21,538 bases of DNA from the IMG/VR virus record IMGVR_UViG_2740892229_000015. One strand, written 5' to 3'. The notes under the pieces were generated by a model that was given only the letters and a program-made list of their open reading frames with translations, was not told where the DNA came from and did no database searches. Every line of letters begins with the position of its first letter. Position 1 is the stretch's first letter. A program made the position numbers and the translations under genes. Of this stretch, positions 120 to 21,538 are shown piece by piece. Origin of the DNA: a virus (taxonomy: Duplodnaviria > Heunggongvirae > Uroviricota > Caudoviricetes).

Positions 120-272
120 GAAAATAAAGGGATAACGATGATAGTTTGAGAAAAACAGAAATAACACTTTTGTGGCAAAGCNNNNNNNNNNGGCCACGCC
201 ATGCGCAGCCGGAAATAAAGGGATAACGATGATAGTTTGAGAAAAACAGAAACAACACTTTTGTGGCAAAGC
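100..272. repeat. Two near-identical copies of an ~80-bp sequence (100-181 and 192-272) flanking an N run; most likely overlapping contig ends or repeat variants
   Basis: Direct comparison: ggcc(g/a)cgccatgcgcagcc(g)gaaataaagggataacgatgatagtttgagaaaaacagaaa(t/c)aacacttttgtggcaaagc. Confidence 0.6.
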
Positions 273-3765: not shown

Positions 3766-5157
3766 ATGACTGAGAACACGACTCCAACAGCAGACTTTAG
3801 TCCTAGTAAAAGATTTTTTGTAAGTATGCTAACTCGAGATATCGACTTAAACGATGCCATACTTGATCTGCTTGATAACTGCGTCGATGGGGCTTTACGT
3901 ACAATAAAAGACACAAAAAAAACTTCAAAACCATATGAAGGATTTTATGCGAAACTTACGATTAATAAAGATGTCTTTATTATAGAAGACAATTGCGGAG
4001 GTATCCCTAAAAGCTTCCGAGAATATGCTTTTAAAATGGGACGACCCCATCAAAAAGAAGAAGAAAATGAAGGCACCGTTGGCGTCTATGGTATTGGTAT
4101 GAAAAGAGCCATTTTTAAAATGGGTAGAGATTGCTCAATACAATCGAATAATCCCGATGGCGCATTCACTGTAGATATAACACCTGATTGGATCGATGGT
4201 GATGGTTGGAAAATACCGATGCACGAGAGTGACTATGATAACAAAAATCCAACAGGCACAACTATAGAGATAAAAAAACTCCATTCTAATGTGGCACAAA
4301 AATTTAATGAGAGCACATATCTTACTGATCTCTTTTTACAGATAAAACACTCATTGTCATTTATTATTCAAAAAGGATTTAAAATAGAATTAAATGGAGT
4401 TGTTGTTGAACATAATCCGATTAACATCATAACTGATCATTCTAAAATAGAACCATACATATATAAAGCTAAAATAGACGATGTTGATATCGATTTAGTT
4501 GTTGGCTTCTATAAAAATTTAGAAGATGACAATGATGATGTTTTAGAAAAAAGGAGTTCTGATGATGCTGGATGGACTGTCATTTGCAATGACCGCGTTG
4601 TTCTATATTGTGATAAGACACATCTCACAGGTTGGGGCTTTGCTAATGTACCAAGGTTTCATACCCAATTTATAGCAATTTCTGGGGTTGTTCGCTTTAC
4701 CAGTAAAAACCCAGAAAAATTACCAATAACAACAACGAAACGAGGTGTCGATCTTAGTTCTACATTGTACAATGATGTACGAAATAAAATGATTGAAGGG
4801 ATGATGCATTTTATTCGATTCACCAATCAGTGGAAAGGTGAGCATCTTGAAGAAGGGAAAAAATTACTTAAGTCAGCTCAGTCACATGAAGCTCAATCTT
4901 TATTTGAAATTACCCCACAATCAACTCCAGAAGATAAAAAAAATAACTGGTCCAACCCTAATAGAAACAAAAATGAGTGGCGATATACACCTAAGCTGCC
5001 TACCCCAGTAAAAAAAAGCTCTACTGTACGAATAATCTTCACCAGAGAGAAAGAAGATGTTAAAATTTTATCTAAATATTTCTTTGGACATGAAGATGCT
5101 AGCGCTTCTGATGTGGGGATGCAATGCTTTGATACGGTGATTGAAGAGGTGAAGTGA
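3766..5157 (+). CDS. GHKL-superfamily ATPase, MutL/MORC-like (463 aa)
   Basis: ORF track; Bergerat-fold motifs in order: N-box DLLDNCVDGA, G1 IEDNCGGI, G2 GVYGIGMKRA; GAGAG RBS; AT-rich codon usage unlike the flanking prophage genes. Confidence 0.85.
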   Translation: MTENTTPTADFSPSKRFFVSMLTRDIDLNDAILDLLDNCVDGALRTIKDTKKTSKPYEGFYAKLTINKDVFIIEDNCGGIPKSFREYAFKMGRPHQKEEENEGTVGVYGIGMKRAIFKMGRDCSIQSNNPDGAFTVDITPDWIDGDGWKIPMHESDYDNKNPTGTTIEIKKLHSNVAQKFNESTYLTDLFLQIKHSLSFIIQKGFKIELNGVVVEHNPINIITDHSKIEPYIYKAKIDDVDIDLVVGFYKNLEDDNDDVLEKRSSDDAGWTVICNDRVVLYCDKTHLTGWGFANVPRFHTQFIAISGVVRFTSKNPEKLPITTTKRGVDLSSTLYNDVRNKMIEGMMHFIRFTNQWKGEHLEEGKKLLKSAQSHEAQSLFEITPQSTPEDKKNNWSNPNRNKNEWRYTPKLPTPVKKSSTVRIIFTREKEDVKILSKYFFGHEDASASDVGMQCFDTVIEEVK

Positions 5158-6146
5158 TGTCTGGACAATACATTCCCTATCACTTAAGGCATAATAAGTC
5201 TATTGATAGAGAGATTTTTCTCGAAAGCCTAAACCTCTTAAGCAAAAGACTAAATATTCAAGAATATACATATATAGGTTTTGGTGGTCCGATGCTTGAA
5301 GATTTTAGAATCATGCATAATCGTATCGCTCTTTCTGATATGATTTCTCTCGAAGAACAAGAGTCTACTCACATCAGACAAAAATATAATTTGCCTTATA
5401 ATTGTATTGATTGTAAGCTAATATCAGCTCATGACTTTATTCTTGATTATAGTTTTTCTAAACCATCAATAACATGGTTAGACTATGCCTCCCCGAAAAA
5501 AATACAAACGGATCTAGATGATATACACTTACTAAGTACTAAAGTAAGCTCTTTTGATATTTTGAAGGTCACCTTCCCCATAAATCCTAGTTCTTATTAC
5601 CAACGTAGAGTTGGAGAAAGTTTAGATATTTTTAAAGAAGCTTTTATTAATTCATTAAAATCATTGCTTGGGAAAAAGTATCTTGATTTTAATCTTCAGA
5701 TATCAAATGCAGATCTTTCAGATCGTAAGATTAAAGCTCTTTTAATACGAATTATTACAAACGCTTTTAGATCAGCAATAGAACGTGGTCTTTCAGGACG
5801 TAAGGATAAGATTCAGTATTACCCATTATCCTTAAATCAATATAATGATGGCAGTCATACCATGTTGACAATATCAGGTTTTTTCTCCTCAGAACAAGAA
5901 TATATAGAGTTATCTAAGGCATGCGACCTTTCTAACTGGCAATTTTATTCAACAAATTGGGAAGACGTGCAAGAAATAGCAATACCAACACTAACAATTA
6001 AAGAAAAGATAAATTTAGATAGTAAACTGCCTGATAAAGAAGCATATCAGGCAGCCGCTGAAGAGTTCTCTTTAAACGAAAATGAACGGGATAACTATTA
6101 TAAATACTATAGGTTATACCCTAACTTCCAAAGAATTATGGTTTAA
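5157..6146 (+). CDS. Protein of unknown function (329 aa), translationally coupled to the GHKL ATPase; possible effector of the cassette
   Basis: ORF track 5154..6146; ATG at 5157 overlaps the ATPase TGA (TGATG); GAGGTG RBS; no motif I can recognise. Confidence 0.75.
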   Translation: MSGQYIPYHLRHNKSIDREIFLESLNLLSKRLNIQEYTYIGFGGPMLEDFRIMHNRIALSDMISLEEQESTHIRQKYNLPYNCIDCKLISAHDFILDYSFSKPSITWLDYASPKKIQTDLDDIHLLSTKVSSFDILKVTFPINPSSYYQRRVGESLDIFKEAFINSLKSLLGKKYLDFNLQISNADLSDRKIKALLIRIITNAFRSAIERGLSGRKDKIQYYPLSLNQYNDGSHTMLTISGFFSSEQEYIELSKACDLSNWQFYSTNWEDVQEIAIPTLTIKEKINLDSKLPDKEAYQAAAEEFSLNENERDNYYKYYRLYPNFQRIMV

Positions 6147-7265
6147 ATATTCGGGCTGTACTCTTTTATTTAATAAATTGTACAGCCCCTTTAATATATA
6201 TTCAGCAACTATTGGTGACACGCTATTTCCTATTTGTCTGAAACTATGCCATTTAGTTACATGAAAGCGAAACCAATCAGGGAAGCCTTGTAATCTAGCA
6301 GCTTCTCTTGGTGTAATCACTCTTGGATGATAAGGGTGGATCGGCCTGACGGCTTGAAAGCTTCCTTTATCTCTAGCGGTTCCCGCCCTTAAAGTCGGGC
6401 AAAAACCATTTGGATCTAATCTTGTAGATCTTGAAATTTTATCAGTTTCCCCAAAAGATAAGGAAGCATAACGCTCTTGGACGATTTTGCTATGTAATGT
6501 TCCGGTACATCCAGATATGATATTATTTTTTAACTTAGCGATCGATTCTGTATCACCAACATTCCGAGGGATCTGCCCCCATAATTTTTCATAAAATCCC
6601 CCTTTTCGATCTTTTTTAATTGTTCGCCAACTCTCAGAGTCTGATTGCCAATTGGCATCGATAATATCTGGTAATCCATACAAAGCATCTTTTACAGTAA
6701 CCGGATCAATCATTTTAGGCATAAATACTTCATCTGAAATATCAAGCTTCAATGATTTTTTTACACCGATAAAAAAATATCTAGTTCGAATAGTTGGAGC
6801 ACCATAATCAGATGCTTTTACCTTGATGGGATCAAGAATATCATAATCACCGCTAACCAAATTAAATGCTTTATTTCTAATGCCAGAATATTTCTCTTGC
6901 ATAATACCTGGAACATTTTCTGCCAAAAAGAATAATGGCTGTAATTCTGATACTAAACGGTAGAAATGCATGTAAAGCTGATTCCTGCTATCATCAGGAT
7001 TCCCCTTGCCTATTGAACTAAATCCTTGGCACGGAGGACCGCCAATAATACCATCTATGGGCATATCGTTTTTAAAAAAACCCTTAATTATTTCTGCATT
7101 TAGTAAAGAAACATCTTCTTGGACGTGCAAACTTCTTGGAAAATTAATTGCGTGAGTATTAATAGCATGTTGATCAATTTCAACTGCCATTTTAACATCA
7201 AATCCAGCACGTGCAGCACCAAGACTTAGACCTCCAACGCCAGAAAACAAATCTATTACATTCAT
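6114..7265 (-). CDS. DNA (cytosine-5)-methyltransferase (383 aa)
   Basis: ORF track; canonical C5-MTase motifs: I FSGVGG, IV GPPCQGFS (catalytic Cys), VI ENV, X QIGNSVSP; 3' end overlaps the convergent 329-aa gene by 33 bp. Confidence 0.9.
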   Translation of the reverse strand: MNVIDLFSGVGGLSLGAARAGFDVKMAVEIDQHAINTHAINFPRSLHVQEDVSLLNAEIIKGFFKNDMPIDGIIGGPPCQGFSSIGKGNPDDSRNQLYMHFYRLVSELQPLFFLAENVPGIMQEKYSGIRNKAFNLVSGDYDILDPIKVKASDYGAPTIRTRYFFIGVKKSLKLDISDEVFMPKMIDPVTVKDALYGLPDIIDANWQSDSESWRTIKKDRKGGFYEKLWGQIPRNVGDTESIAKLKNNIISGCTGTLHSKIVQERYASLSFGETDKISRSTRLDPNGFCPTLRAGTARDKGSFQAVRPIHPYHPRVITPREAARLQGFPDWFRFHVTKWHSFRQIGNSVSPIVAEYILKGLYNLLNKRVQPEYLNHNSLEVRV

Positions 7266-8120: not shown

Positions 8121-8171
8121 NNNNNNNNNNTTCATCAGAGGTGGCGAGGGATTTCTCCCCCGCCGGGGCTC

Positions 8172-8327
8172 TTACTCCTCAGGTTCGTAAGCTGTGAAGA
8201 CAGCGACCTCCGTCTGGCCGGTTCGGACTCGTACCTCGCAGAGGTCTTTCCTCGTTACCAGTGCCGTCACTATGACGGTTAAACAGATGACGATCAGGGC
8301 GATTAACATCGCCTTTTGCTGCTTCAT
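8172..8327 (-). CDS. hok: Hok/Gef-family type I toxin (51 aa, MKQQKAMLIALIVICLTVIVTALVTRKDLCEVRVRTGQTEVAVFTAYEPEE), HokD/RelF-like
   Basis: ORF track 8172..8384; internal ATG with AGGAGAAG RBS; single TM helix plus conserved C-terminal Cys, matching the Hok family as I recall it. Confidence 0.8.
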   Translation of the reverse strand: MKQQKAMLIALIVICLTVIVTALVTRKDLCEVRVRTGQTEVAVFTAYEPEE

Positions 8328-8437
8328 AGCCTGCTTCTCCTTGCCTTTCGGCACGTAAGAGGCTAACCTACGTTTGTGAAGCATAGATTGGGCCTCAGAT
8401 TAATGTTAAGCGTCTTGCAGGACGCGTAATGTTAACT

Positions 8438-8543
8438 GGGGCTTTTCTCTGTCTGCCTTACGGTGGCATGCCCGAGGCAGACAGCCTCAAGCACCCGCAG
8501 CAATTCTACTTAACTCTCGCTTTACCGCAAACCGTTTTTACCC
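8438..8543. repeat. Copy 2 of the conserved ~105-bp element (palindrome ctgtctgcc...ggcagacag), here about 110 bp upstream of hok on the hok-coding strand
   Basis: Direct comparison with 7518-7622. Confidence 0.6.
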
Positions 8544-10783: not shown

Positions 10784-10793
10784 NNNNNNNNNN

Positions 10794-11278
10794 GTTCATT
10801 TCCTACAGATCTCAGTGATATTTCTGTTGGTCTATATTCTCAACCTCGAATCGAGTGGATTTTATGGCAGAGTTTAATGAATAGAAAAGAACTTGCCAGA
10901 AATGTGATTTATAGTGATTATGGAGTACAGCACCCCGACTTTAATAGGCTTTCGACGCGATTCCCTAGCGTATCTGCCAGCGTCAGATACTCTGGAGATA
11001 ATGACTTTTGGGTATTTCGAGGAAGAGTAGCTAATCGCTTTGGTTATGAACAATATGGTAAACATAGTGAGGATATTCTTGCTCATCGAGAATATTCAGG
11101 GCCTACATTCTGTGCGGGAGATAGAGACATAGAATATTATGCAAACGAGTATCAAGCCTACAAAGCCAATCCCTCTGGTAACTATAAATTTGGTAGCCCA
11201 GAGGTATGGCGTAGGATTGGGCAAAACCATCACATAACTAAGGTTGTTGAGCAACTCGCCACTCTTTACGGGCTTTAA
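10794..11278 (+). CDS. Partial or complete CDS of unknown function: frame is open from the contig start, with a possible internal ATG at 10877 (133 aa); convergent with the nuclease-like gene
   Basis: ORF track 10757..11278 (its N-terminus spans the N run and is artefactual); AT-rich. Confidence 0.35.
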
Positions 11279-11816
11279 GTTTAACTCGAACAGCTTCACG
11301 AAGCTCGCCAACATCCATACTATTGGCGAGTTTTGACCATAAGACGCGTTTAGGTTTATTTTTCAAATTCTGTAGCTCCCCTACATCACTTAATAGGGAA
11401 AGCAATTCATCTTTCCAAAGAAGCATTGTTAAGGAAAGTTTGTCCACTTGTGGATTCAACTTGCTAGTTCGAATTGTTTTTAAATGGATACCTTGCCGTG
11501 CACCTTGCGTAACTTGCTTTATCCCCCACCATGATGGAACTATGCTTAAAGCATCATAAAGATGGCAATCAGAGACAACCAAAGTTACTTTATCCATCAC
11601 TGATGAGTAATGTTGCACCTGCGCTGGTAATCTGAGCAAGTTATCACTCTTGCTCTTCAACTCATAACCATGTATAAGCCCATTGATCACTGCTATATCA
11701 GCTCTGCTAGCCCCTAGATTCATCGTAAACTCATCAATGATTAGGGTGTCAGGATCTTTATGATGATCTCTCAGAATCTTGGCATGCACAGCCTTTCTTA
11801 CATCAATGTCTCTCAT
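11238..11816 (-). CDS. PD-(D/E)xK nuclease-like protein (192 aa); resembles what I recall as the sce7726 family
   Basis: ORF track; candidate D...ExK motif in SRADIAVINGLIHGYELKSKSD; AT-rich; family name is from memory, not a search. Confidence 0.6.
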   Translation of the reverse strand: MRDIDVRKAVHAKILRDHHKDPDTLIIDEFTMNLGASRADIAVINGLIHGYELKSKSDNLLRLPAQVQHYSSVMDKVTLVVSDCHLYDALSIVPSWWGIKQVTQGARQGIHLKTIRTSKLNPQVDKLSLTMLLWKDELLSLLSDVGELQNLKNKPKRVLWSKLANSMDVGELREAVRVKLKARKEWRVAQQP

Positions 11817-12121
11817 ACCATAGTTGCGCTTTCATCGACTCTCTCAAGCCATGATTCTATATCATGGTTCGCATGAATGCCATTTGATATGACCAGTGGT
11901 TAAACATTGCACAGAAAAGTGGATGTGTATTTTAACAAAAGCAATGACGGCTAACCATGTTGGTATGTCGATAAAATGTTTCAACGTAAGCATTATCTGT
12001 TCCGCCCTTTCAGACGGCCTCCTGATGTTCTGAGGGTGCAGAATCCCTCCGGTTAAGGATTTAATAAAAATCGTTTCTGATTTAAATCTTCAGTATTTAG
12101 TTGTTAGTCGGTTTATAGCCT

Positions 12122-12433
12122 TTATGCTTCGGCCTTATTTCTCAGCCATACACAAACCGGGCCATCTTCGGTGTCATGTATTGAACCAATAAACCATCCA
12201 TTGCCCTCTGGTCGTTCCGGTTCCCATGCAGAAATATCAGCATCACACGCATCAAGGTCAGCACATCCTTCATCTCTGAAGCAGAGGACGTATTGAAGAT
12301 TATTTTCCTCCATCCAGGCGTTAAACTCTTCCGTTGAAATATATTCCCGACCGTCACAGAATTTTTCATATTCAGGATGCGTCCAGCAGCCATATTCATC
12401 ACGTACTACTGGTATTTCTTTAATTTCATTCAT
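12122..12433 (-). CDS. Hypothetical prophage protein (103 aa)
   Basis: ORF track; GGGAGAA RBS. Confidence 0.55.
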   Translation of the reverse strand: MNEIKEIPVVRDEYGCWTHPEYEKFCDGREYISTEEFNAWMEENNLQYVLCFRDEGCADLDACDADISAWEPERPEGNGWFIGSIHDTEDGPVCVWLRNKAEA

Positions 12434-12680
12434 TTCTGTTCTCCCACGTTTTCAGACTTTCACCACAGAACGGACAAAATGAAACCCGAACTGGTAATTT
12501 AGAAAATTCACCGGAACGCAACATCACAAAATCAGGACCGCGAGTTAAACTCTCATTCCAGATTTTGTATATCAGCAGACCTTTTCGCATCGTGTATTCA
12601 GCATCATGCTCAAGGGACTTTGCCAGTGCTGCACATGGTTCTATCTTGTTGCCATTAACCTGGCATTTTGATTCACTCAC
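12426..12680 (-). CDS. Hypothetical small Cys-containing prophage protein (84 aa, GTG start; C..C....FCPFC zinc-ribbon-like)
   Basis: ORF track; GGAGGTGG RBS; start overlaps the stop of the upstream gene (GTGA). Confidence 0.5.
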   Translation of the reverse strand: MSESKCQVNGNKIEPCAALAKSLEHDAEYTMRKGLLIYKIWNESLTRGPDFVMLRSGEFSKLPVRVSFCPFCGESLKTWENRNE

Positions 12681-12953
12681 CGCACCACCTCCTCAAAATT
12701 CCCCTGATAAAACGCCAGTACGCGCTGCATAACTTCGCTCTTCCGGCACTCGAGACAGATTATGTTCAGACGCCTGTCGTAGCGACGTATTTCTCCGTCA
12801 GGTAATGACCAGATAAGGTCCGGATCAACCGCAGATGGTTTCTTCAGCTTTGCCCTTGAGAGCTTTTTACGGGTATTTTGCCAGTCCTTACGCGCCTGTT
12901 CAGACGGGAATAACCCGTAACCAGAGTTGTATACATCGCCACTGGCAACCAGC
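12677..12953 (-). CDS. C-terminal fragment of the paralogue of the 10507-10783 gene, truncated by the N run
   Basis: Near-identical DNA to 10507-10783 with scattered substitutions. Confidence 0.5.
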
Positions 12954-12963
12954 NNNNNNNNNN

Positions 12964-13670
12964 GAACCGCCCCGGAAATCCTGGAGACTAAACTCCCTGA
13001 GAAAGAGGTAAACAGGATGACTAAAAATACTCGTTTTTCCCCCGAAGTCCGTCAGCGGGCGATTCGTATGGTTCTGGAAAGTCAGGATGAATATGACTCA
13101 CAGTGGGCGGCAATTTGTTCCATTGCCCCAAAGATTGGCTGTACGCCGGAGACTCTGCGTGTCTGGGTTCGCCAGCATGAGCGGGATACCGGGAGTGGTG
13201 ATGGTGGACTCACCACCGCTGAACGTCAGCGTCTGAAAGAGCTGGAACGTGAAAATCGTGAACTGCGCCGCAGTAACGATATCCTTCGCCAGGCTTCCGC
13301 TTATTTTGCGAAGGCGGAGTTCGACCGCCTCTGGAAAAAATAATGCCTCTGCTGGATAAGCTGCGTGAGCAGTACGGGGTCGGACCGGTATGCAGTGAAC
13401 TGCATATTGCCCCGTCAACGTATTACCACTGTCAGCAACAGCGACATCATCCTGATAAACGCAGTGCCCGTGCGCAGCGCGATGACTGGCTGAAGAGAGA
13501 GATACAGCGCGTATACGATGAAAATCATCAGGTATACGGTGTGCGTAAAGTCTGGCGCCAGTTGTTACGCGAAGGTATCAGGGTGGCCAGATGTACAGTG
13601 GCGCGCCTCATGGCGGTTATGGGACTTGCCGGTGCTCTCCGGGGTAAAAAGGTCCGTACTACCGTCAGCC
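12964..13670 (+). mobile_element. IS3-family insertion sequence, left part only (IRL, orfA, first ~110 codons of orfB); homology to the other copy ends at ~13670
   Basis: Terminal repeat gaaccgccccgg at the contig start; orfA/orfB in -1 frame arrangement; transposase resembles IS629/IS3411-type as I recall. Confidence 0.8.
13017..13343 (+). CDS. IS3-family transposase OrfA (HTH, 108 aa)
   Basis: ORF track (its N-terminal residues spanning the N run are artefactual); GAGG RBS; leucine-zipper-like C-terminus. Confidence 0.9.
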
Positions 13671-13690: not shown

Positions 13691-13971
13691 CGAAGTTGGA
13701 TGCAAATGTCAGATCGTGTGCGCCTGTTATGGCTCGGCTGGTAAGAGAGCCTTATAGGCGCATTTGAAAAAACTCCAGCTATACCGGAAGATATTTATTA
13801 TTAACAGGAGAGGTTTGCTTTTCTGTGTAGGTTTAGATTTTGTGTTTGCAGGGTAAACAAAACTGATTAACTCGTCATTTCGGTAACTGAAATAGTTTGC
13901 TGTTGGATTTGCCCCTATATTTCCAGACATCTGTTATCACTTAACCCATTACAAGCCCGCTNNNNNNNNNN

Positions 13972-14854
13972 ACTGCTGGATAAGCTGCGTGAGCAGTACG
14001 GGGTCGGACCGGTATGCAGCGAACTGCATATTGCCCCGTCAACGTATTACCATTGTCAGCAACAGCGACATCATCCGGATAAACGCAGTGCCCGTGCGCA
14101 GCACGATGACTGGCTGAAGAAAGAGATACAGCGCGTATACGATGAAAATCACCAGGTATACGGTGTGCGTAAAGTCTGGCGTCAGTTGTTACGGGAAGGT
14201 ATCAGAGTGGCCAGATGCACTGTGGCACGTCTCATGGCAGTTATGGGACTTGCCGGTGTTCTCCGGGGTAAAAAGGTCCGCACTACCGTCAGCCGGAAAG
14301 CCGTTGCCGCATGCGACCGCGTAAACCGTCAGTTCGTGGCAGAACGTCCAGACCAGTTGTGGGTGGCTGATTTTACCTGGGTAAGCACATGGCAGGGCTT
14401 CGTTTATGTGGCGTTCATCATTGATGTGTTCGCCGGATACATCGTGGGATGGCAGGTCTCATCATCCATGGAAACAACATTCGTGCTGGATGCACTGGAG
14501 CAGGCGTTGTGGGCCCGTCGGCCGTCCGGCACAATCCATCACAGTGATAAAGGTTCTCAGTATGTATCGCTGGCCTACACGCAGCGGCTTAAGGAAGCCG
14601 GATTACTGGCATCAACAGGGAGTACTGGCGACTCGTATGACAACGCGATGGCTGAGAGCATCAATGGTCTTTACAAAGCGGAGGTAATACACCGTAAGAG
14701 CTGGAAAAACCGGACAGAAGTGGAACTGGCCACACTAACGTGGGTGGACTGGTATAACAATCGACGATTGCTGGAAAGGCTGGGCCATATTCCTCCGGCA
14801 GAAGCAGAAAAAGCTTATTATGCTTCCATCGGAAATAATGATCTGGCAGCCTGA
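13972..14854 (+). CDS. IS3-family transposase OrfB (DDE integrase core), 5' end lost in the N run
   Basis: ORF track 14165..14854 plus open frame back to the contig start. Confidence 0.85.
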
Positions 14855-14896
14855 GTTCACAGATAAAACACTCTCCAGGAAACCCGGGGCGGTTCA
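13972..14896 (+). mobile_element. IS3-family insertion sequence, right part (orfB from codon ~2 to the right inverted repeat ending ...ccggggcggttca at 14896); a second, diverged copy
   Basis: IRR is the reverse complement of the IRL at 12964; several nucleotide differences from the copy at 13343-13670. Confidence 0.85.
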
Positions 14897-15053
14897 CAGT
14901 TTTATCAACGACGCCATTTCTTTTGAGTTCCCACAGCTCGTTGACAGCCTCTTCACGACTGATTCCAAGGCTGGCCGCCACTACCTGTGAAGAGGCTCTT
15001 TTCAGTGCTTTCAGTGCGTCAAATACGGTTTCCATTAATATTTCCTCCGACAA
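14897..15053 (-). CDS. 5' part (52 codons) of a small prophage gene ([51 protein letters not shown]...) whose reading frame runs into the IS end; probably IS-disrupted
   Basis: ORF 14661..15053 crosses the IS right end at 14896. Confidence 0.35.
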
Positions 15054-15068
15054 AATCGTTTCTCAGAT

Positions 15069-15611
15069 TCAAATAAAACCAGCTGCCTTCCGGCGTTCGT
15101 ATTCCTGTTTCAGCCGCTCAATTGGCGTTGGCCCTTGCGGGTGTTTCGCCCCTTCCAGTTGTCGTCGCACTGGCGGAACACTCATCCCGTTACCAACATG
15201 CTTTGCCCATTTCGTCAGTTGCCGTTCCGCAAGTCGTTTTAACTCACCCTGCGTCATCTGGCGCTCAATCCCTCTGGTACGCATTTCGAGGCAGATGTGG
15301 TACAGCACAGGCTGTGGCCACGGGTATTTATCACTCCCGTCGTATCGCCAGGATTCATTGCGCCAGCGCCGGTACTCTTCCATCACTGCATCCACCGTAA
15401 GACCAAATGGATTTGCCCCACTCTCCGAAATCAGTGCAACAAACTCAGCCAGGTCCGGGGGCCACGTTTCACCCGCCCGGCAGCGGTCCATGCACTGACG
15501 GCAGACCAGCCGGATTTGCTGTTCAGTCATCGCGCCAATCTGGGCAATCCAGAGCTTCGAAGGTGCGGCCCCGTTCTTCTGTGTCCAGCGGTTCGAATAC
15601 ACCTCCCCCAT
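15069..15611 (-). CDS. Lambda P-like replication protein (helicase loader); start uncertain, longest ORF begins at 15731
   Basis: ORF track; collinear similarity to lambda P as I recall it (FLPSPGQFVAW vs TWPPDLAEFVAL, YPWKSNAHYW vs YPWPQPVLYH). Confidence 0.65.
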   Translation of the reverse strand: MGEVYSNRWTQKNGAAPSKLWIAQIGAMTEQQIRLVCRQCMDRCRAGETWPPDLAEFVALISESGANPFGLTVDAVMEEYRRWRNESWRYDGSDKYPWPQPVLYHICLEMRTRGIERQMTQGELKRLAERQLTKWAKHVGNGMSVPPVRRQLEGAKHPQGPTPIERLKQEYERRKAAGFI

Positions 15612-16172
15612 AAGCTCCCACAGCTTCCAGGCCGTTTCCGTTGCTGATAAATCCGTTGTCACGTTCCCACTGTTCGCGTGCTGCCCGGATTTCCTGAACT
15701 GCCCGTGATGCCGTGCCACCTGATGCTGCATGGCTTACCCCCTTGCTGACTGGTTTTACCTGTGCCCTGACGTGCTGCACGTGGCGGGCAAATTTCTGCT
15801 CCCACTGAACCTGCGTGAAAACCTTCCCCTCCGCCATCCAGTAATCCCGGAATGCGGCAAGCTCTGCAGGTGTAAATTCCGGCTCAGGCAGAGCCATACC
15901 CCACACTGCTGCCCGTTGTCGAAAATCCGACGACGGCTGCCAGACAGTAGTCATCGAAAATTTCCCGATCGGTTCGCTCAGGCCGTCCAGGTATTCAGGT
16001 TCGGCTGTCTGCAACGGCGCACCATGCGACTCACCGGTTGGAGCACTCTCGCGCATGCGCGCGTTATGTGTGGGGTTTAATTCTGTATCTGTATCTTTAT
16101 CTGTCGTGACTTGTCGTGACATGTGCGTGACATTTCGTGACGCGCCGTGACAATCGCCATTTTGTTCCCGCT
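15523..16172 (-). CDS. C-terminal part of an O-like replication initiator, truncated by the N run inside its iteron region
   Basis: ORF track 15523..16236 (the part beyond 16172 belongs to another piece); shares the iteron-encoded segment REQNGDCHGASRNVTHMSR with the O-like gene at 16277-17353. Confidence 0.6.
16081..16152. repeat. Origin-type iterons: tandem ~10-11-bp repeats containing CGTGAC, next to tatctgtatcttta repeats
   Basis: Read directly; same array as at 16885-16960. Confidence 0.6.
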
Positions 16173-16182
16173 NNNNNNNNNN

Positions 16183-17353: not shown

Positions 17354-17418
17354 CTCTTCTGATACCGAATCTTTTTACTCACGAGTTGCCGGAAGCGATT
17401 CGATATGGCTATTGTCAG

Positions 17419-17844
17419 TCAATGTACTGCCACAGCATTTCCTGCCGGGCCACCACGGTTCATCTGATTGAAACCGGCGATTGCCACTGCGACAAAATCA
17501 TCAGCGTCTCTCACCAGTCGCTCCCGCGTCTCCACCAGCTCCCGAAAATAAGCTGAACTGTGGCTGCGCATTCTGGCCACCAGCAAAGGTGGCATTGCCT
17601 TTTCGATCGCTGGTAACAACGCCTGAATTTTTTCAACTGCATCAGGGGTATCTTTCTCTATCCAGCGGAAAATTTTCTGGGTATTGCGAGCCAGGGCTTC
17701 CGGATGGCTGTCGTCGTACAGTTCAGGAAACGTCATACCCAACTCAAAATAAGCCTGGGTTATTCCAGCTGCCGGAACTTTTTCGCCATCAGGACGCGCC
17801 CAGGCATTCATCGCCATGCGGATGTGTTCATGCTTGATTTTCAT
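17419..17844 (-). CDS. YdaT-family protein (141 aa from MKIKHEHIRMAMNAWA), the cII-position gene of Rac-like prophages
   Basis: ORF track 17419..17916; internal ATG with AAGGGGGG RBS; N-terminus matches YdaT as I recall it. Confidence 0.7.
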   Translation of the reverse strand: MKIKHEHIRMAMNAWARPDGEKVPAAGITQAYFELGMTFPELYDDSHPEALARNTQKIFRWIEKDTPDAVEKIQALLPAIEKAMPPLLVARMRSHSSAYFRELVETRERLVRDADDFVAVAIAGFNQMNRGGPAGNAVAVH

Positions 17845-18070
17845 GAATCCCCCCTTGGTTAGAAGGCGGATTATGATCAGAACCGGGAATGACAACCGTC
17901 GGTATGTGTAACTCATATTTGAGCGCCCCGGCAGTGACTGCCTGAATTAGCAACGCCCATTTCCACGGAACCTCTTCCCCCCACATGCTGACTGTGGTTT
18001 TTGACGTTCCTAGAGCTGCGGCTGTTTTAACAACTCCGCCAAAATAGCCTAATACTTCTGATTTTTTCAT
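17828..18070 (-). CDS. YdaS-like Cro-type HTH regulator (80 aa from MKKSEVLGYFGG)
   Basis: ORF track 17828..18112; GGAGCG RBS; divergent from the CI-like repressor. Confidence 0.65.
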   Translation of the reverse strand: MKKSEVLGYFGGVVKTAAALGTSKTTVSMWGEEVPWKWALLIQAVTAGALKYELHIPTVVIPGSDHNPPSNQGGIHENQA

Positions 18071-18161
18071 GAGTCGCTCCATAAAACTGAACGCCAAAAG
18101 TTTAATAATCAAAACAAAAGAAAGTCAAGAAACAAAACCATCTGTGTTTTAAAATCAAAAC
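18071..18161. promoter_or_regulatory. Divergent promoter/operator region between the cro-like gene and the CI-like repressor gene
   Basis: AT-rich 91-bp intergenic region between divergent regulator genes; operators not resolved. Confidence 0.4.
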
Positions 18162-18800
18162 ATGAGCAAGCAAACAATATCTGAACGCATAACCCAACGT
18201 ATGCATGCGCTAAACCTGAAAGGCAAAGACCTTGTCAATGCCACTGGCGCATCAAAAGGCTCCGTAAGTCAATGGATGAACGGTGGAGGAGCGCCGTCCT
18301 CGCGTTACATAAGTTCACTGGCAAAAATATTGAAAGTAAACGAAAATTGGCTTCTTAATGGAGGAGAGTTAAATACAGGTGATTCGCTTGATCTATCTTT
18401 ACCGCCGATAAAAACGGTTCCGCTACTATCACTTCAGCAGGCAGCAAGCTGGAGTGATTATATGAAAAATTCCTCAATAACCTCTTGTGTGCAGCTTGTC
18501 GGAGAAATCCCGGCCAATACCTTTGCAGTTGTTCTAGAGAGTGACAGTATGTCAACATCTGGTGGGGGAGTTTCCATCCCAAATGGTTCAACAGTTTTTG
18601 TTGATCCCAATCGAACCGTACAACCAGGAAATATTGTCCTTGCCTTACCCAAAGGGACCACAACACCTGTCATTCGTAAACTGGAGATAGAAGGGCCGGA
18701 TATTCTTTTAGTCCCCACGAATCCTCGCTACCCTTCAATTATGCTGGATGATCTATCTTGCATATTGGGCGTATGCTTTAAAATTCAACAAGATATTTAA
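18162..18800 (+). CDS. CI-like prophage repressor: N-terminal HTH plus C-terminal S24 (LexA-like) autopeptidase domain (212 aa)
   Basis: ORF track; HTH GASKGSVSQWMNG; C-terminal ESDSMS...VDPN...PGNIV...RKL collinear with the lambda CI C-terminal domain. Confidence 0.8.
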   Translation: MSKQTISERITQRMHALNLKGKDLVNATGASKGSVSQWMNGGGAPSSRYISSLAKILKVNENWLLNGGELNTGDSLDLSLPPIKTVPLLSLQQAASWSDYMKNSSITSCVQLVGEIPANTFAVVLESDSMSTSGGGVSIPNGSTVFVDPNRTVQPGNIVLALPKGTTTPVIRKLEIEGPDILLVPTNPRYPSIMLDDLSCILGVCFKIQQDI

Positions 18801-18937
18801 CCGACCTCATCTATTTGATTAACTGTATGCCATCGTGGTGATGGCTTAACAGCTGCCTGCTTAAAATGTTTTGATAAAAAAACATTGACCTGAAAAGTTC
18901 ATTTTTCTAAACTTCATTCATTCCCTCTCCCCCCCCC

Positions 18938-18994
18938 CACAGAATGCAGGGCAATACTTCGAGTTACCAGGCAGTGGTCAGGGGTTAAGTAGCC
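18938..18994 (+). repeat. Conserved ~57-bp element (cacagaatgcagggcaatacttcgagttaccaggcagtggtcaggggttaagtagcc) preceded by a C-run; second copy at 20679-20735
   Basis: Direct comparison (3-4 substitutions); a TTGACC-N17-TAAACT promoter-like sequence lies just upstream in this copy. Confidence 0.55.
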
Positions 18995-19004
18995 NNNNNN
19001 NNNN

Positions 19005-19199
19005 GTCTTTCTCTACCCAGCGGAAAATTTTCTGGGTATTACGGGCCAGGGCTTCCGGATGGCTGTCGTCGTACAGTTCCGGGAACGTCATCCCCAGTTC
19101 GAAATAAGTCCGGGCTATTTCAGCTGCTGGAACTTTCTCACCGTCTGGATACGCCCAGGCATTCATTGCCATGCGGATGTGTTCATGCTTGATTTTCAT
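19005..19199 (-). CDS. N-terminal 65 codons of a second YdaT-family gene, truncated by the N run
   Basis: ORF track 18978..19199; paralogue of 17419-17844. Confidence 0.65.
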
Positions 19200-19458
19200 G
19201 AATCACCCCCGCCTCTGGTTGTGTGTTAGCCTGATACTCGACAGGTAAGCCGTCGGTTGGGTTGGGATAAGTACTGCCATCAATCTCGTGCGGAGTTACT
19301 ATCCAGCCTGTTGCTTCGCACCAGCGTAAAATTTTTTTCCCCGTAAGTTTCGCCCGTCCGGTAATGACATGGCTTACCATCCCTTGGGTTACCCCAACAA
19401 TTTCAGCAAAATGCTTCTGAGTTATACCGGAATGATGCAAATATTCTCCAAGATTCAT
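19183..19458 (-). CDS. Cro-type HTH regulator (91 aa, YdaS-like)
   Basis: ORF track; GAGGTG RBS; HTH QKHFAEIVGVTQGMVSH. Confidence 0.65.
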   Translation of the reverse strand: MNLGEYLHHSGITQKHFAEIVGVTQGMVSHVITGRAKLTGKKILRWCEATGWIVTPHEIDGSTYPNPTDGLPVEYQANTQPEAGVIHENQA

Positions 19459-19489
19459 TGTTCACCTCATGTGATGTCATTACGATCAT

Positions 19490-19531
19490 TAATAGCATTG
19501 TTATTTTTAAAAGTAAATAGCATTACTATTT
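19490..19531. promoter_or_regulatory. Two operator-like repeats (taatagcattgttatt, aaatagcattactatt) between the cro-like and repressor genes
   Basis: Read directly; same half-site AATAGCA as the palindromes at 20614-20653. Confidence 0.45.
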
Positions 19532-19565
19532 CAAAGAGATTAATAATCTTATTAGAATTGAAGGT

Positions 19566-20066
19566 ATGAAAAGAAAATCCCTGTCAGAGATCGACCTGCA
19601 AGCCGCCCAGAGACTGAAAGAAATCTGGACGGCGAAAAAAAATCAACTAGGGTTAACCCAAGAGCGTGCGGCAGAAATTCTGGGATTTTCGACACAGGGA
19701 GCTGTAAGCCATTATCTAAATGGTCAGACACCTTTAAATCTTGAGGCTGTTATCAAGTTCGCAGGGTTGCTGCAAGTTCCTCCCGAGTCAATCAGACCAG
19801 ATATGGCCGAGTTGTTACAAATTGTAAGGATGTATCCCCAAGAATCTGGGGAGGACAATGTTGTCACTATATCTGCAGATATGGAACAATCGGAAAACGA
19901 ACTTCCGTTTAATATAGACCCCATGGAGCGGGATTTGCTCCAGACGTTCAGGGCTTTCCCCAAAGAAGATAAAGAGAAAATGCTTAAGGAAATGAAGGAG
20001 AAAAAAGAATCAATTGAAGAAATCGTTGCGCGATGGCTAGCTGCGCAAAAGGGTCGTCGCGCCTAA
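19566..20066 (+). CDS. HTH_XRE-type repressor (166 aa), PaaR-like: first gene of a three-gene regulator/antitoxin/toxin operon
   Basis: ORF track; HTH LGLTQERAAEILGFSTQGAVSHYLNG; gene order as in paaR2-paaA2-parE2. Confidence 0.65.
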   Translation: MKRKSLSEIDLQAAQRLKEIWTAKKNQLGLTQERAAEILGFSTQGAVSHYLNGQTPLNLEAVIKFAGLLQVPPESIRPDMAELLQIVRMYPQESGEDNVVTISADMEQSENELPFNIDPMERDLLQTFRAFPKEDKEKMLKEMKEKKESIEEIVARWLAAQKGRRA

Positions 20067-20083
20067 TCTGAGGAGGTAAAAAC

Positions 20084-20275
20084 ATGAGTACAGCCCTTTC
20101 CCCGATAATTTCTGAATTTGAAACAGTCGAACAAGAAAACAGCTATAACGAATGGTTGCGAACCAAAGTGGCAGCAAGCCTCTCAGATCCCCGTCCTGCA
20201 ATTCCACATGACGAAGTAATGGCTGAAATGGAAAACCTTATTGCTCAATTAGCTGCAACGAACAGGAGTGAGTAA
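20084..20275 (+). CDS. PaaA2-like small antitoxin (63 aa)
   Basis: ORF track; GAGGAGG RBS; stop overlaps the toxin start (TAATG). Confidence 0.65.
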   Translation: MSTALSPIISEFETVEQENSYNEWLRTKVAASLSDPRPAIPHDEVMAEMENLIAQLAATNRSE

Positions 20276-20565
20276 TGCTGCCCATTTTATGGCTACCTTC
20301 TGCACGTGATGATTTACGTCAGATCGTAGCCTATATTGCTAAGGAAAACCCTCCCGCTGCACGTAGACTAAAAATACGCATTGAAACATCAGTTTTGTCA
20401 CTTACTGAACACCCTTATCTGTACCCACCGAGCGAAAGAGTTCCAAGTCTTCGTGAGATAGTGACTCATCCTAACTACATAATACTTTACCGAGTAACAG
20501 CATCTAACATCGAGATCGTAAATGTAGTTCACTCACGAAGACAGTATCCAAACAAAACCTGTTAA
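20275..20565 (+). CDS. parE: ParE/RelE-superfamily toxin (96 aa), ParE2-like
   Basis: ORF track; ParE-like sequence pattern; coupled to the upstream antitoxin. Confidence 0.75.
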   Translation: MLPILWLPSARDDLRQIVAYIAKENPPAARRLKIRIETSVLSLTEHPYLYPPSERVPSLREIVTHPNYIILYRVTASNIEIVNVVHSRRQYPNKTC

Positions 20566-20578
20566 TCCTTCCTGTCAA

Positions 20579-20603
20579 CAACCACCTTCGGGTGGTTTTT
20601 TTC
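20579..20603 (+). terminator. Rho-independent terminator after the toxin gene: aaccacc-ttcg-ggtggtt followed by TTTTT
   Basis: Perfect 7-bp stem, GNRA-like loop, T-run. Confidence 0.65.
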
Positions 20604-20613
20604 TTGCCACGAT

Positions 20614-20653
20614 AATAGCACTGCTATTTACATAATTAAATAGTAGTGGTATT
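20614..20653. promoter_or_regulatory. Operator-like palindromes aatagca-c-tgctatt (perfect) and aaatagtagtggtatt, overlapping a promoter-like sequence; OL/pL-like
   Basis: Read directly. Confidence 0.45.
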
Positions 20654-20678
20654 GTTCATTCATCAACCCACCCCGCCC

Positions 20679-20735
20679 CACAGAACGCCAGGCAATACTT
20701 CGAGTTACCCGGCAGTGGTCAGGGGTTAAGTAGCC
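20679..20735 (+). repeat. Second copy of the conserved ~57-bp element, at the 5' end of the rightward early operon
   Basis: Direct comparison with 18938-18994. Confidence 0.55.
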
Positions 20736-20834
20736 AGCCCGAGGCGTATGAACATGACGGCGGGAACACTTTATATAACAGCGCAGCAGTTTTTTAGTTC
20801 CGCTACCCCGGCGTTAAGGGGAAATGAGGTCAGC

Positions 20835-20990
20835 ATGGATACTATCGATCTTGGCAACAATGAATCTCTGGTGTACGGCGTGTTTCCCAACCAGGACGGC
20901 ACATTCACCGCGATGACGTATACCAGAAGCAAAACGTTTAAAACCGAAAATGGTGCCCGTCGCTGGCTGGAAAGAAACTCAGGTGAGTGA
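20835..20990 (+). CDS. Small prophage protein (51 aa from MDTIDLGNNESLVYG), YdaF-like
   Basis: ORF track 20748..20990; internal ATG with GAGGT RBS. Confidence 0.55.
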   Translation: MDTIDLGNNESLVYGVFPNQDGTFTAMTYTRSKTFKTENGARRWLERNSGE

Positions 20991-21119
20991 TATGGATTTC
21001 GACACAATCATGGAAAAGGCTTACGAAGAATACTTCGAAGGCCTTGCCGAAGGCGAAGAAGCTCTCAGCTTCAGTGAGTTTAAACAGGCGCTTTCCAGCT
21101 CGGCAAAATCTAACGGCTG
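20991..21119 (+). CDS. Small acidic protein (42 aa, MDFDTIMEKAYEEYFEGLAEGEEALSFSEFKQALSSSAKSNG)
   Basis: Hand translation; GGTGAG RBS; below the ORF-track cutoff. Confidence 0.35.
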
Positions 21120-21149
21120 ATAAGCGAAGCAGCACCGCGAGGAATCAGT

Positions 21150-21368
21150 ATGCAGAAACGAGAACCCGTCATCATCTCGCCAGACTATACCGATGATGAA
21201 CTTTATGAGTGGATGCGCCAGAAAATTAATGCAGCGCAGGATCTGAAATGGGCCAATGAAGCCAGGGCTAAGCAGGCTGAAAATCTGTCCGCTCTGGAGC
21301 AGGATATCACCAGGCTGGAAAAAGCAGCGGCATTAAGCATTGCCAGAATGATTACATACCCGCGTTAA
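21150..21368 (+). CDS. Hypothetical prophage protein (72 aa)
   Basis: ORF track; GAGGAA RBS. Confidence 0.55.
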   Translation: MQKREPVIISPDYTDDELYEWMRQKINAAQDLKWANEARAKQAENLSALEQDITRLEKAAALSIARMITYPR

Positions 21369-21390
21369 TAGCTAACCAACGAGGCTAATA

Positions 21391-21538
21391 ATGGAATTTA
21401 AAGATTTACCAATGCAATTCCAGGAAATGGCAGCGAATATAGTTCGTTCCCAACTGGCGACTCTTGACCTGAGTACCGTAGAAAAAGAAACCATCGATAC
21501 TATATCCGGTAACGTGCGTCGTGCCTTTATCGGTCTGT
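21391..21538 (+). CDS. 5' part of a gene running off the window end (MEFKDLPMQFQEMAANIVRSQLATLDLSTVEKETIDTISGNVRRAFIGL...)
   Basis: Hand translation; GAGG RBS. Confidence 0.4.
   Translation, partial: MEFKDLPMQFQEMAANIVRSQLATLDLSTVEKETIDTISGNVRRAFIGL

Follow-up and report, generated by a model that had tools for sequence, protein, structure and literature searches.

The window (the whole 21,538-nucleotide, or 21.5-kb, stretch of viral DNA that was analysed) carries a repressor gene (19566–20066), an antitoxin gene (20084–20275) and a toxin gene (20275–20565) in a row on the plus strand, with one promoter-like site upstream and a terminator after them. These features bear out the repressor, antitoxin and toxin operon described in an earlier note on this DNA, and the flanking gene that the note had called cro-like is a divergent helix-turn-helix (HTH) gene on the minus strand (19183–19458).

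Genes of the operon and its flanks

The repressor has 166 aa, matches HTH_3 in Pfam, and comprises a lambda-CI-type N-terminal domain, a disordered linker, and a PaaR/DicA-type two-helix C-terminal domain. The N-terminal domain is about 35–39% identical to lambda CI (phmmer E = 9e-10 to 1.5e-9), and the AlphaFold model aligns with the lambda cI N-terminal domain in Foldseek with a target-normalised TM-score of 0.83–0.93 and an rmsd of 1.1–1.7 Å. The S24 autopeptidase (PF00717) has no Pfam match in the repressor, and the AlphaFold model shows the two-helix C-terminal domain instead. The C-terminal ~48 aa are common to PaaR2 (MQKKE..., phage Evi locus L004) and to the regulator of L002, the second paaR-paaA-parE locus of EDL933, which is presumably the PaaR1 system, placed on CP-933M in the literature. 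Residues 91–166 are 47% identical to the L002 regulator (E = 8e-23), and blastp gives no alignment between the two before residue 91. The motif LLQxFxAFPxED...KKES.E..(I/V)ARW(L/I)AAQKxRRA of the C-terminal domain aligns with PaaR2. The DicA model NCBIfam NF007257 matches aa 107–162 only (E = 1.5e-7, 31.2 bits against a cutoff of 101), and blastp against K-12 DicA gives E = 2e-5. With NF007257 below its cutoff, the repressor is not a full-length member of the DicA family; it is DicA-type by its C-terminal domain together with the ydfABC-dicB operon downstream.

Judged by its sequence, the repressor is an example of domain swapping, as it belongs to the PaaR family by the C-terminal domain only and its N-terminal domain is of the lambda-CI type. 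No sequence similarity between PaaR2 and CI was found in the PaaR2 paper, which argued the link by analogy only (PMC8630535), whereas the N-terminal domain described here (E = 1e-9) links the PaaR/DicA family to lambda CI at the sequence level. Because the S24 domain is missing, no cleavage on RecA activation is expected, and the protein is predicted to work like CI yet not to be an SOS-cleavable CI. A sequence search of the PDB with the repressor found no PaaR2 structure. A scan of the genome contigs with the repressor found no relative, and relatives were obtained via the protein database, followed by the contigs encoding them.

The paaA-type antitoxin (63 aa) matches PF21217 (E = 1e-21) and PaaA2 in PDB 3ZBE (E = 2e-22), and the ParE-type toxin (96 aa) matches PF05016 (ParE_toxin, E = 6.6e-18) and, over residues 1–92, ParE2 in PDB 5CW7 (E = 5e-36). 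They are 84% and 88% identical to the L002 antitoxin and toxin of EDL933, respectively. Gene order in one operon, a PaaA2-domain antitoxin, a ParE2-like toxin, and the regulator C-terminal domain place the locus in the PaaR-PaaA-ParE family. Overlapping stop and start codons had been reported for the operon; they are present between paaA and parE, which share base 20275 (TAATG), but not between paaR and paaA, which are separated by a 17-nt spacer holding a GAGGAGG ribosome-binding site. PF21217 is the sole Pfam match of the antitoxin, which has no DNA-binding domain, and expression of the toxin-antitoxin (TA) pair would thus depend on the phage switch. With a labile antitoxin, the TA pair would be expected to make the immunity region addictive. 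ParE toxicity, neutralisation by PaaA, a protease-labile antitoxin, and addiction are known for the PaaR2 system only (PMC8630535). PADLOC gives no match for the repressor, antitoxin or toxin, so that library lends no support to a catalogued defence system.

On the left, the cro-like or ydaS-like gene encodes 91 aa with Pfam HTH_3. Its product shares 42% identity with the YdaS-like protein encoded at the PaaR1-type locus of EDL933, 28% with that of the PaaR2 locus, and 50–63% with the cro-like proteins of the operator-sharing loci discussed below. The 5' part of ydaT, the CII analogue, follows on the minus strand (19005–19199) and is cut by a scaffold gap at 18995–19004. The fragment lies in a region 99.7% identical to L001 from position 9251, where the full gene (141 aa) is annotated as YdaT family; the immA paralogue matches Pfam YdaT_toxin. 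At the end of ydaS and the start of ydaT, the analogue of the PRE region, lies the inverted repeat TTGATTTTCATGAATCAC (19189–19206), with one mismatch to TTGATTN6AATCAA. The YdaT-footprinted OM site of CP-933P occupies the same position (PMC9986795), and it is this position that suggests a YdaT OM-like site, the repeat alone being statistically not significant.

On the right, ydfA (20835–20990), ydfB (20992–21120) and ydfC (21150–21368) on the plus strand, assigned from the L001 annotation and with a Pfam match to DUF1391, are the first genes of a PL/dicB-type operon and are 97.3% identical to ydfABC of K-12 Qin. The label of rightward early operon given earlier to these genes has to be reversed, since in lambda terms they open the leftward PL operon (ydfA-ydfB-ydfC, then dicB, exo, xis and int).

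Operators, promoters and the proposed switch

The 15-bp pattern AATAGCANTGCTATT, with at most two mismatches, occurs exactly four times in the window, at 19491, 19516, 20614 (perfect) and 20639. The chance expectation for this count is 0.10, and none of 100 shuffles reaches four. The operator consensus is the palindrome AATAGCAnTGCTATT; within each pair the sites start 25 bp apart, and one cluster is an inverted copy of the other. Two AATAGCA-based sites on either side of the operon had been proposed, and this holds for the full palindrome. The bare heptamer AATAGCA was dropped as an enriched element (six found against 3.65 expected), as the enrichment belongs to the palindrome only.

Upstream of the repressor, the OR1-like candidate operator AATAGCATTGTTATT (19491–19505) overlaps the -10 of a putative PR-like promoter and lies at -75 from the repressor ATG in the relatives L005, L010 and L012. 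The OR2-like candidate AATAGCATTACTATT (19516–19530) is located between the PR and PRM -35 elements and lies at -50 in the relatives. A possible weak OR3-like site, ATTAATAATCTTATT (19539–19553), would begin 23 bp from OR2 and extend into the PRM -10 with five mismatches to the consensus; in L005 and L010 the same position holds ATTAGTAAAACTATT. The putative PR-like promoter on the minus strand (19489–19517) consists of -35 TTTACT (19512–19517), 17 nt, and -10 TATTAA (19489–19494). It has 8 of 12 consensus positions, which is below the scan threshold, was not called by the scan, and is read from the sequence as mirroring the PL-like promoter. The aligned relatives have TTGACA, TTGACT or TTTACA at the PR -35. 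The PRM-like promoter TTCAAA-17-TAGAAT on the plus strand (19530–19558) was found by the promoter scan. Because its -10 ends 7 nt upstream of the paaR ATG, the paaR mRNA is probably leaderless or nearly so, and in three of three relatives TAAAAT is found 6 nt before the ATG.

Downstream of the toxin gene, an intrinsic terminator-like hairpin on the plus strand (20580–20604, hairpin at 20580–20597) with a 7-bp stem, a UUCG loop and a T-run would end the repressor-TA transcript ahead of OL. The hairpin was found by scan, and its fold of -10.4 kcal/mol is unremarkable against shuffles (z = -1.5). The OL2-like candidate operator AATAGCACTGCTATT (20614–20628) is a perfect 7-1-7 palindrome overlapping the -35 of a PL/dicBp-like promoter, and the OL1-like candidate AATAGTAGTGGTATT (20639–20653) overlaps its spacer and -10. 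This promoter (TTTACA-17-TATTGT with an upstream TG, 20627–20655, plus strand) was also found by the scan and reads into ydfA-ydfB-ydfC. The layout of operator, TTGAC, and operator with TATTGT or TATTAT is seen again in L005, L010 and L012, and an operator, TTGAC, operator layout is also present at Qin dicBp. The resemblance to OR and OL, pointed out earlier, rests on operator pairs on both sides, lying over PR/PRM-like and PL-like promoters and kept in these three loci. The exchangeable immunity module ends on its right side, and the PL leader begins, at a conserved plus-strand block (20655–20735) that is about 90% identical to 18913–18994 and to the corresponding stretches of L002, L004 and L008. 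The leader after OL folds no better than shuffles (z = +0.69), and the idea that it forms a structured RNA of the nut or put type was dropped for this reason. Rfam gives no match in 19000–21538, even at E ≤ 1.

In the proposed mechanism, repressor dimers would bind the palindromes via the lambda-CI-type HTH. The OR pair (19491, 19516) would act over the PR-like promoter of ydaS (the Cro analogue), ydaT and the replication genes, with OR2 abutting the PRM-like -35 and the PRM transcript beginning right at the repressor ATG or adjacent to it. The OL pair (20614, 20639) would act over the PL/dicBp-like promoter of ydfABC, followed by dicB, exo, xis and int. The 25-bp pair spacing together with the helical C-terminal domain would permit cooperative binding as well as OR-OL looping. 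Competition by the YdaS-like protein for the same sites would create a bistable switch, and derepression would occur via an antirepressor or by stochastic switching.

Complete genomes and a second repressor

The window also contains, about 660 bp left of the PaaR cassette, another cro/cI pair that is complete and has repeats of its own, consisting of a P22-Cro-like gene (17828–18112) and an S24/LexA-type CI (18162–18800). This pair could be the real repressor system, with the PaaR-like gene forming a tandem double immunity or being an accessory, and a separate CI-like repressor had been named earlier as the finding that would speak against the PaaR-like protein. But the S24 gene lies on another contig. 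The window is a scaffold with ten gaps of the 10-N type, one of which (18995–19004) separates the S24 repressor from the PaaR cassette, and its contigs map with differing identities to overlapping reference coordinates, which is the pattern of interleaved paralogous prophage contigs. Adjacency within the window is thus untrustworthy, and this serves as a practical warning for gene order anywhere in the 21.5 kb. In the closest complete genome, NZ_CP027355.1, the S24 cassette is 100% identical and belongs to a separate prophage with the same synteny, ~320 kb from the PaaR cassette, and the tandem of S24 and PaaR cassettes occurs in none of 5426 complete E. coli genomes. It is extremely improbable that the S24 protein is the repressor of this prophage.

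The PaaR cassette itself is 100% identical in NZ_CP027355.1 and occupies the cI position there. The gene order is int-xis-exo-dicB-ydfCBA, then parE-paaA-paaR, facing ydaS-ydaT-O-like-P, and no other repressor-like gene is annotated between potB and potC in this prophage. The prophage is defective, with frameshifts in J and in the portal gene as well as IS insertions, so its 'prophage repressor' may now mean the silencing of early genes such as dicB only. The locus could then be a decayed remnant whose repeats and promoters are fossils and whose genes are kept by TA addiction alone with no working repression, in line with the cryptic state of its studied relative CP-933P. This is very unlikely, because no ORF is disrupted, 41 complete genomes carry the cassette at 99% identity or more, and relatives with proteins only 46–62% identical have retained the operator half-sites and promoter hexamers. 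Moreover, the switches of cryptic CP-933P and Qin remain functional and bistable (PMC8630535; PMC10448788).

Operator-sharing relatives and known systems

The operators were compared among L005, L010 and L012, whose repressors share the recognition helix TQGAVSHYLN, with the PaaR1-type L002, PaaR2 L004 and immA L008 as controls. The helix-sharing loci have two sites in front of the ATG, at ~75 and ~50 bp, and two over a TTGAC-17-TATTGT/TATTAT promoter 3' of the cargo. Operator matches number 5 against 0.47 expected in L005, 4 against 0.17 in L010, and 4 against 0.03 in L012. The three controls have no such site pair near the repressor gene and use other repeats. The cargo between the sites is HipA_2 (HipA-like) with DUF3037, HigB/HigA, or none, and the backbone is retained. 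These observations support the view that the operator motif travels with the repressor DNA-binding domain, whatever cargo a locus carries and even where it carries none. In their OR regions the four loci share homologous DNA (76% mean column identity) and thus do not count as independent occurrences. The cro-like proteins also co-vary with the operators, so the comparison alone cannot tell which protein binds; both the repressor and the cro-like protein are expected to do so. Relatives of 244 aa, at first read as having a different C-terminal domain, retain the PaaR C-terminal domain in the alignment plus an extra PaaR1-like HTH, and consequently cannot tell effects of the N-terminal domain from those of the C-terminal one. 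A better separation comes from L010 and L012, whose DicA-like C-terminal domains are diverged, and from the three controls. The operator sites of the S24-type relative P0031 (L009) are all weak and degenerate, which makes it uninformative. In the phage collection, one partial DNA match was found, to phage Evi, which carries the PaaR2 system and was used as its reference (L004).

PaaR entered the literature as the regulator of a TA system with three components (Hallez 2010, cited in PMC3141249 and PMC8630535). The regulator described here could likewise be a dedicated third TA component that autoregulates its own operon and is no immunity repressor, with the downstream repeats being incidental or serving another protein. 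An antitoxin with no DNA-binding domain indeed implies that the TA pair needs an outside regulator. Nevertheless, the same operator pairs surround a homologous repressor that lacks a TA pair altogether in L012 and repressors with unrelated cargo in L005 and L010, the downstream pair overlaps the promoter into ydfABC-dicB, the complete prophage has no other repressor candidate annotated, and PaaR2 represses the PR and PL analogues (PMC8630535). A role confined to the TA operon is accordingly judged very improbable.

We consider it highly probable that 19183–20660 is the immunity (lysogeny-switch) region of a Qin/CP-933-type lambdoid prophage, in which the 166-aa protein is the CI-equivalent repressor and paaA-parE is co-transcribed cargo in the rexAB slot. 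Homology, context and comparison support the CI-like role. The gene identities, operator statistics, promoter and terminator matches, complete-genome synteny, and the joint occurrence of operator motif and DNA-binding domain in several loci are established directly; binding, regulation and toxicity at 19183–20660 are all predicted. The suggestion that the PaaR-like protein is the prophage repressor with the TA pair as a rex-like passenger gains from the cI position, the lack of another annotated repressor in the complete prophage, and the variable cargo; the TA pair is read as a passenger because same-helix relatives keep 2+2 operators around different cargo. One backbone with ParE/PaaA, HigBA, HipA-like plus DUF3037, or no cargo makes the slot between repressor and OL a general site for TA or defence cargo.

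The locus is a heteroimmune relative of the PaaR2 immunity region, and its arrangement has essentially been published for E. coli O157:H7; a phage or TA specialist would not be surprised by the findings. With its clean 15-bp operator, it represents a third, heteroimmune specificity among the E. coli prophage immunity regions of the PaaR-PaaA-ParE kind.

CP-933P / Sp12 paaR2-paaA2-parE2: PaaR2 of this cryptic prophage acts like CI, YdaS takes the part of Cro and YdaT that of CII, and OR, OL and PL have equivalents, on the evidence of EMSA, footprints, reporter fusions and bistability assays in which the PR and PL analogues are repressed; the paaR2 and cI mRNAs are leaderless (PMC8630535). Both systems have the regulator-antitoxin-toxin order, divergent ydaS-ydaT, the cI position, operator sets on both sides, PRM-, PR- and PL-like promoters, a probably leaderless repressor mRNA, a repressor with no S24 domain, the conserved C-terminal ~48 aa, the PaaA2 domain and the ParE fold. 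In contrast, the N-terminal domain of the repressor is here of the lambda-CI type and unrelated in sequence to that of PaaR2, and AATAGCAnTGCTATT occurs in 2+2 sites 25 bp apart, whereas CP-933P has GTTTAGTAA-type repeats and four inverted repeats. The toxin/antitoxin block has ~70% DNA identity to CP-933P, and the YdaS proteins share the 28% given above.

L002: The closest TA pair is found here, with the same flanks (ydaT, ydfA, ydfB and dicB). DNA identity is about 81% from repressor codon ~124, in the C-terminal domain, through parE to ydfB. The N-terminal HTH, the cro-like HTH, OR and OL are replaced, and the L002 operators are of the AAAAACTGT...ACAGTTTTT type. The two systems are therefore heteroimmune. 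This mosaic would also fit a ~600-bp block (PaaR/DicA-type C-terminal domain, paaA and parE) that moves as a recombination unit between heteroimmune repressors, which we regard as an unlikely though conceivable reading. If true, the TA pair is joined to the oligomerisation domain of the repressor, recombinants lacking the block die, exchange of immunity regions is policed, and the C-terminal domain possibly couples TA status to repressor activity.

Qin DicA/DicC/dicBp of K-12: Experiments on DicA/DicC describe a non-cleavable DicA in a bistable switch relieved by an antirepressor (PMC10448788). As here, a cro-like gene faces the repressor, ydfA-ydfB-ydfC follow with dicB farther on, and the repressor C-terminal domains are homologous. 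In Qin, unlike at this locus, dicA and dicBp are not separated by a TA pair, and the DicA N-terminal domain and operators are different.

Lambda cI-rexA-rexB: The N-terminal domain is homologous, cro is divergent, operators lie ~24–25 bp apart on both sides, the cargo is co-transcribed with the repressor and terminated before OL, and the repressor mRNA is probably leaderless. On the contrary, the present locus has no S24 domain, two strong sites per side where lambda has three, a ParE-type TA pair in place of RexAB, and YdaT as the CII analogue.

Genes and putative operators of the cassette

The cassette contains three co-oriented genes on the plus strand: a 166-aa regulator with an HTH_3 domain (19566-20066; Pfam), a 63-aa antitoxin (20084-20275) whose sole Pfam match is PaaA2 (PF21217, E=1e-21), and a 96-aa ParE_toxin protein (20275-20565; PF05016, E=6.6e-18). 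Downstream of them, the plus strand has a hairpin with UUCG loop and T-run (20580-20604; sequence scan, fold of -10.4 kcal/mol). The repressor, antitoxin and toxin operon with terminator proposed in the earlier note is thus confirmed. The overlapping stop and start codons also proposed are found at the antitoxin/toxin junction, where the codons have one base of TAATG in common, but not at the regulator/antitoxin junction, where 17 nt including GAGGAGG separate the genes. A 91-aa HTH_3 gene, the cro-like ydaS, lies divergently (19183-19458, minus strand; Pfam). The antitoxin matches PaaA2 (PDB 3ZBE, E=2e-22) and the toxin ParE2 (PDB 5CW7, E=5e-36), but both are closer to the second system of EDL933 (O157:H7), with 84% and 88% identity, respectively.

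The palindrome AATAGCAnTGCTATT, with up to two mismatches, is present at 19491, 19516, 20614 (perfect) and 20639 and nowhere else in the 21.5 kb, four sites against 0.10 expected by chance. Two sites are upstream of the repressor and two downstream of the terminator, as had been claimed; the sites of each pair begin 25 bp apart, and one cluster is an inverted copy of the other. A PRM-like promoter, TTCAAA-17-TAGAAT (19530-19558, plus strand; promoter scan), has its -35 adjoining putative OR2 (19516-19530), which matches the OR2/PRM geometry of lambda. Its -10 ends 7 nt upstream of the repressor ATG, which lacks a Shine-Dalgarno sequence at normal distance; both features fit a leaderless or near-leaderless repressor mRNA, like those of cI and paaR2. 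The scan also found a PL-like promoter, TTTACA-17-TATTGT (20627-20655, plus strand), whose -35 and -10 are overlapped by the OL pair. Its mirror image, a PR-like promoter, may be TTTACT-17-TATTAA, which can be read across OR1 and OR2 on the minus strand and is below the scan threshold. A weak third operator site is suggested at 19539-19553, 23 bp beyond OR2. Likewise, TTGATTTTCATGAATCAC at the ydaS/ydaT junction (19189-19206) is suggestive of a YdaT OM-like repeat, and its position matches that of the footprinted site in CP-933P.

A C-rich block of ~80 nt right after OL (20655-20735) recurs at 18913-18994, in the second EDL933 locus, in the PaaR2 locus of phage Evi and in an S24/immA cassette, and is ~90% conserved across four immunity types. 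At this block the exchangeable immunity module ends on the right and the PL leader begins. The block has no Rfam match, and its folding is not better than that of shuffles.

A second repressor gene and the closed genome

The window has another complete immunity cassette about 660 bp further left, with a P22_Cro gene (17828-18112, minus strand) and a CI-type S24-domain repressor (18162-18800, plus strand). Including a ydaT variant, it spans 17419-18994 and carries its own TGTTTT...AAAACA repeats on both sides (18097-18163 and 18866-18886). A separate CI-like repressor of the same prophage would speak against the PaaR-like protein as prophage repressor, but the S24 gene lies across an assembly gap. 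Ten stretches of N, each exactly 10 long, interrupt the window (182-191, 416-425, 1395-1404, 1486-1495, 8121-8130, 10784-10793, 12954-12963, 13962-13971, 16173-16182 and 18995-19004), and the last separates the two cassettes. Contigs 10794-12953 and 13972-16172 match one prophage of the complete E. coli genome NZ_CP027355.1 at 100%, and 19005-21407 matches it at 99.7%. The in-between contigs show only 90-97% identity, to overlapping coordinates of that genome, the pattern expected of interleaved contigs of paralogous prophages. The window is thus a scaffold in which small contigs of two or more paralogous lambdoid prophages are interleaved, and since these overlap the same reference coordinates, gene adjacency across the gaps is unreliable.

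Of 5426 complete E. coli genomes, none covers 80% or more of 17400-21300 at a single site. NZ_CP027355.1 has both the left cassette (1,257,114-1,258,189) and the PaaR-like cassette (1,576,942-1,578,143), each 100% identical to the window, in two prophages of the same synteny ~320 kb apart. Therefore, the S24 repressor is part of another prophage, and what looked like a refutation arises from the assembly, an artefact worth recording. PGAP annotates just the C-terminal 112 aa of this repressor in NZ_CP027355.1, even though the 212-aa ORF is intact. An IS3-family ALIL frameshifting pseudoknot is complete at 13298-13414 and partial at 13974-14038 (both plus strand), where the next contig begins; the partial copy is a further sign of overlapping contigs.

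The prophage holding the PaaR-like cassette in NZ_CP027355.1 is located between potB and potC and measures roughly 60 kb. RusA, replication protein P, an O-like (DnaT-like) gene, ydaT and ydaS lie on the strand opposite to the regulator's, followed by the regulator, antitoxin, toxin, ydfA, ydfB, ydfC, dicB, exonuclease, xis and int. This gene order places the regulator at the cI position, and no other repressor-like genes are annotated in the element. The prophage is probably defective, because its J and portal genes are frameshifted and it carries several IS copies. The downstream operon, whose ydfABC genes are 97.3% identical to those of K-12 Qin, has the lambda PL and Qin dicBp operons as counterparts. 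The cassette occurs in 70 of the 5426 genomes, at 99% identity or more in 41, and is annotated only generically there.

The same prophage carries the T3SS effector genes espW, an nleG family gene and DUF1076 genes adjoining tail fibre genes (1527000-1533000). In the window, the sok antisense RNA of a hok/sok type I TA locus is found at 8322-8496 (minus strand; Rfam RF01794, 117 bits), with hokD annotated at the matching place in NZ_CP027355.1. An STnc100 sRNA match (235-407) and three tRNA genes (1227-1686), all on the minus strand, are typical of a lambdoid late-regulatory region.

The regulator and its relatives

The regulator is a chimera of a lambda-CI-type N-terminal domain and a PaaR/DicA-type C-terminal domain. 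Homology to the N-terminal domain of lambda CI covers residues 2-90 (E about 1e-9), and the AlphaFold model (mean pLDDT 75) has five helices that match structures of that domain with target-normalised TM-scores of 0.83-0.93 and rmsd of 1.1-1.7 A. A disordered linker (residues 90-112) precedes a two-helix C-terminal domain (residues 119-165), which can be aligned with PaaR2, the EDL933 regulator and longer relatives, and no S24 peptidase domain is present in the protein. DicA is a more distant relative of the C-terminal domain (NCBIfam E=1.5e-7; blastp against K-12 DicA E=2e-5). This direct sequence connection between PaaR/DicA-type repressors and lambda CI is worth recording. The PaaR2 reference was taken from phage Evi, whose regulator starts MQKKE, in agreement with published N-terminal sequencing, and whose antitoxin and toxin agree with the PDB chains across the stretches aligned. 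Three relatives of 244-255 aa (P0014, P0019 and P0020; L005 4001-4735) have a lambda-CI-type N-terminal domain, a PaaR1-like HTH and then a PaaR C-terminal domain; with these tandem HTH domains they look like two immunity specificities fused.

Contigs were found that encode relatives with the recognition helix TQGAVSHYLN. The metagenomic locus L005 has a 244-aa repressor, HipA_2 and DUF3037 as cargo, and five sites against 0.47 expected; L010, from Salmonella diarizonae, has a 154-aa repressor, HigB and HigA, and four against 0.17; L012, from a sequencing-run assembly, has a 153-aa repressor, no cargo, and four against 0.03. From repressor gene to OL, the cargo stretches are 4787-6360 (also holding two reverse-strand genes), 4112-4839 and 3962-4150, respectively. 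In all three, two AATA-N7-TATT-type sites lie ~75 and ~50 bp upstream of the ATG, and two further sites lie downstream of the cargo, over a TTGAC-17-TATTGT or TATTAT promoter. The motif is absent from the EDL933 and Evi loci, which have the PaaR-type C-terminal domain with other N-terminal domains, and from the S24 cassette; other repeats are used in each. The operator therefore tracks the DNA-binding domain and its co-varying cro-like protein, not the C-terminal domain or the TA pair; the comparison cannot tell binding by the repressor from binding by Cro. Nor did the four OR regions arise independently, since their DNA is homologous (76% column identity). The variable cargo slot between repressor gene and OL, equivalent to that of lambda rexAB and held here by the TA pair, is worth recording.

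Comparison with known immunity systems

In CP-933P, PaaR2 and YdaS bind the intergenic region of paaR2-paaA2-parE2 and repress the PR, PRM and PL analogues, YdaT activates the PRE analogue, paaR2 is leaderless, and the region is bistable and addictive (Jurenas et al. 2021, PMC8630535). Similar behaviour is known for DicA/DicC of Qin, where an antirepressor relieves DicA (PMC10448788). The earlier proposal, a PaaR-like prophage repressor with the TA pair as a rex-like passenger, is therefore a model already published for a paralogue. The feature itself is real, and support for that proposal comes here from homology, synteny and the comparison of operators; we infer binding, regulation, leaderless translation, toxicity and addiction at the 19183-20660 locus. 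The EDL933 locus shows ~81% DNA identity from 19936 onward, a conserved block comprising the C-terminal domain, paaA and parE and continuing to ydfB. What sets this locus apart is a different immunity specificity, with a new N-terminal domain, cro HTH, OR and OL, which would make it a heteroimmune variant.
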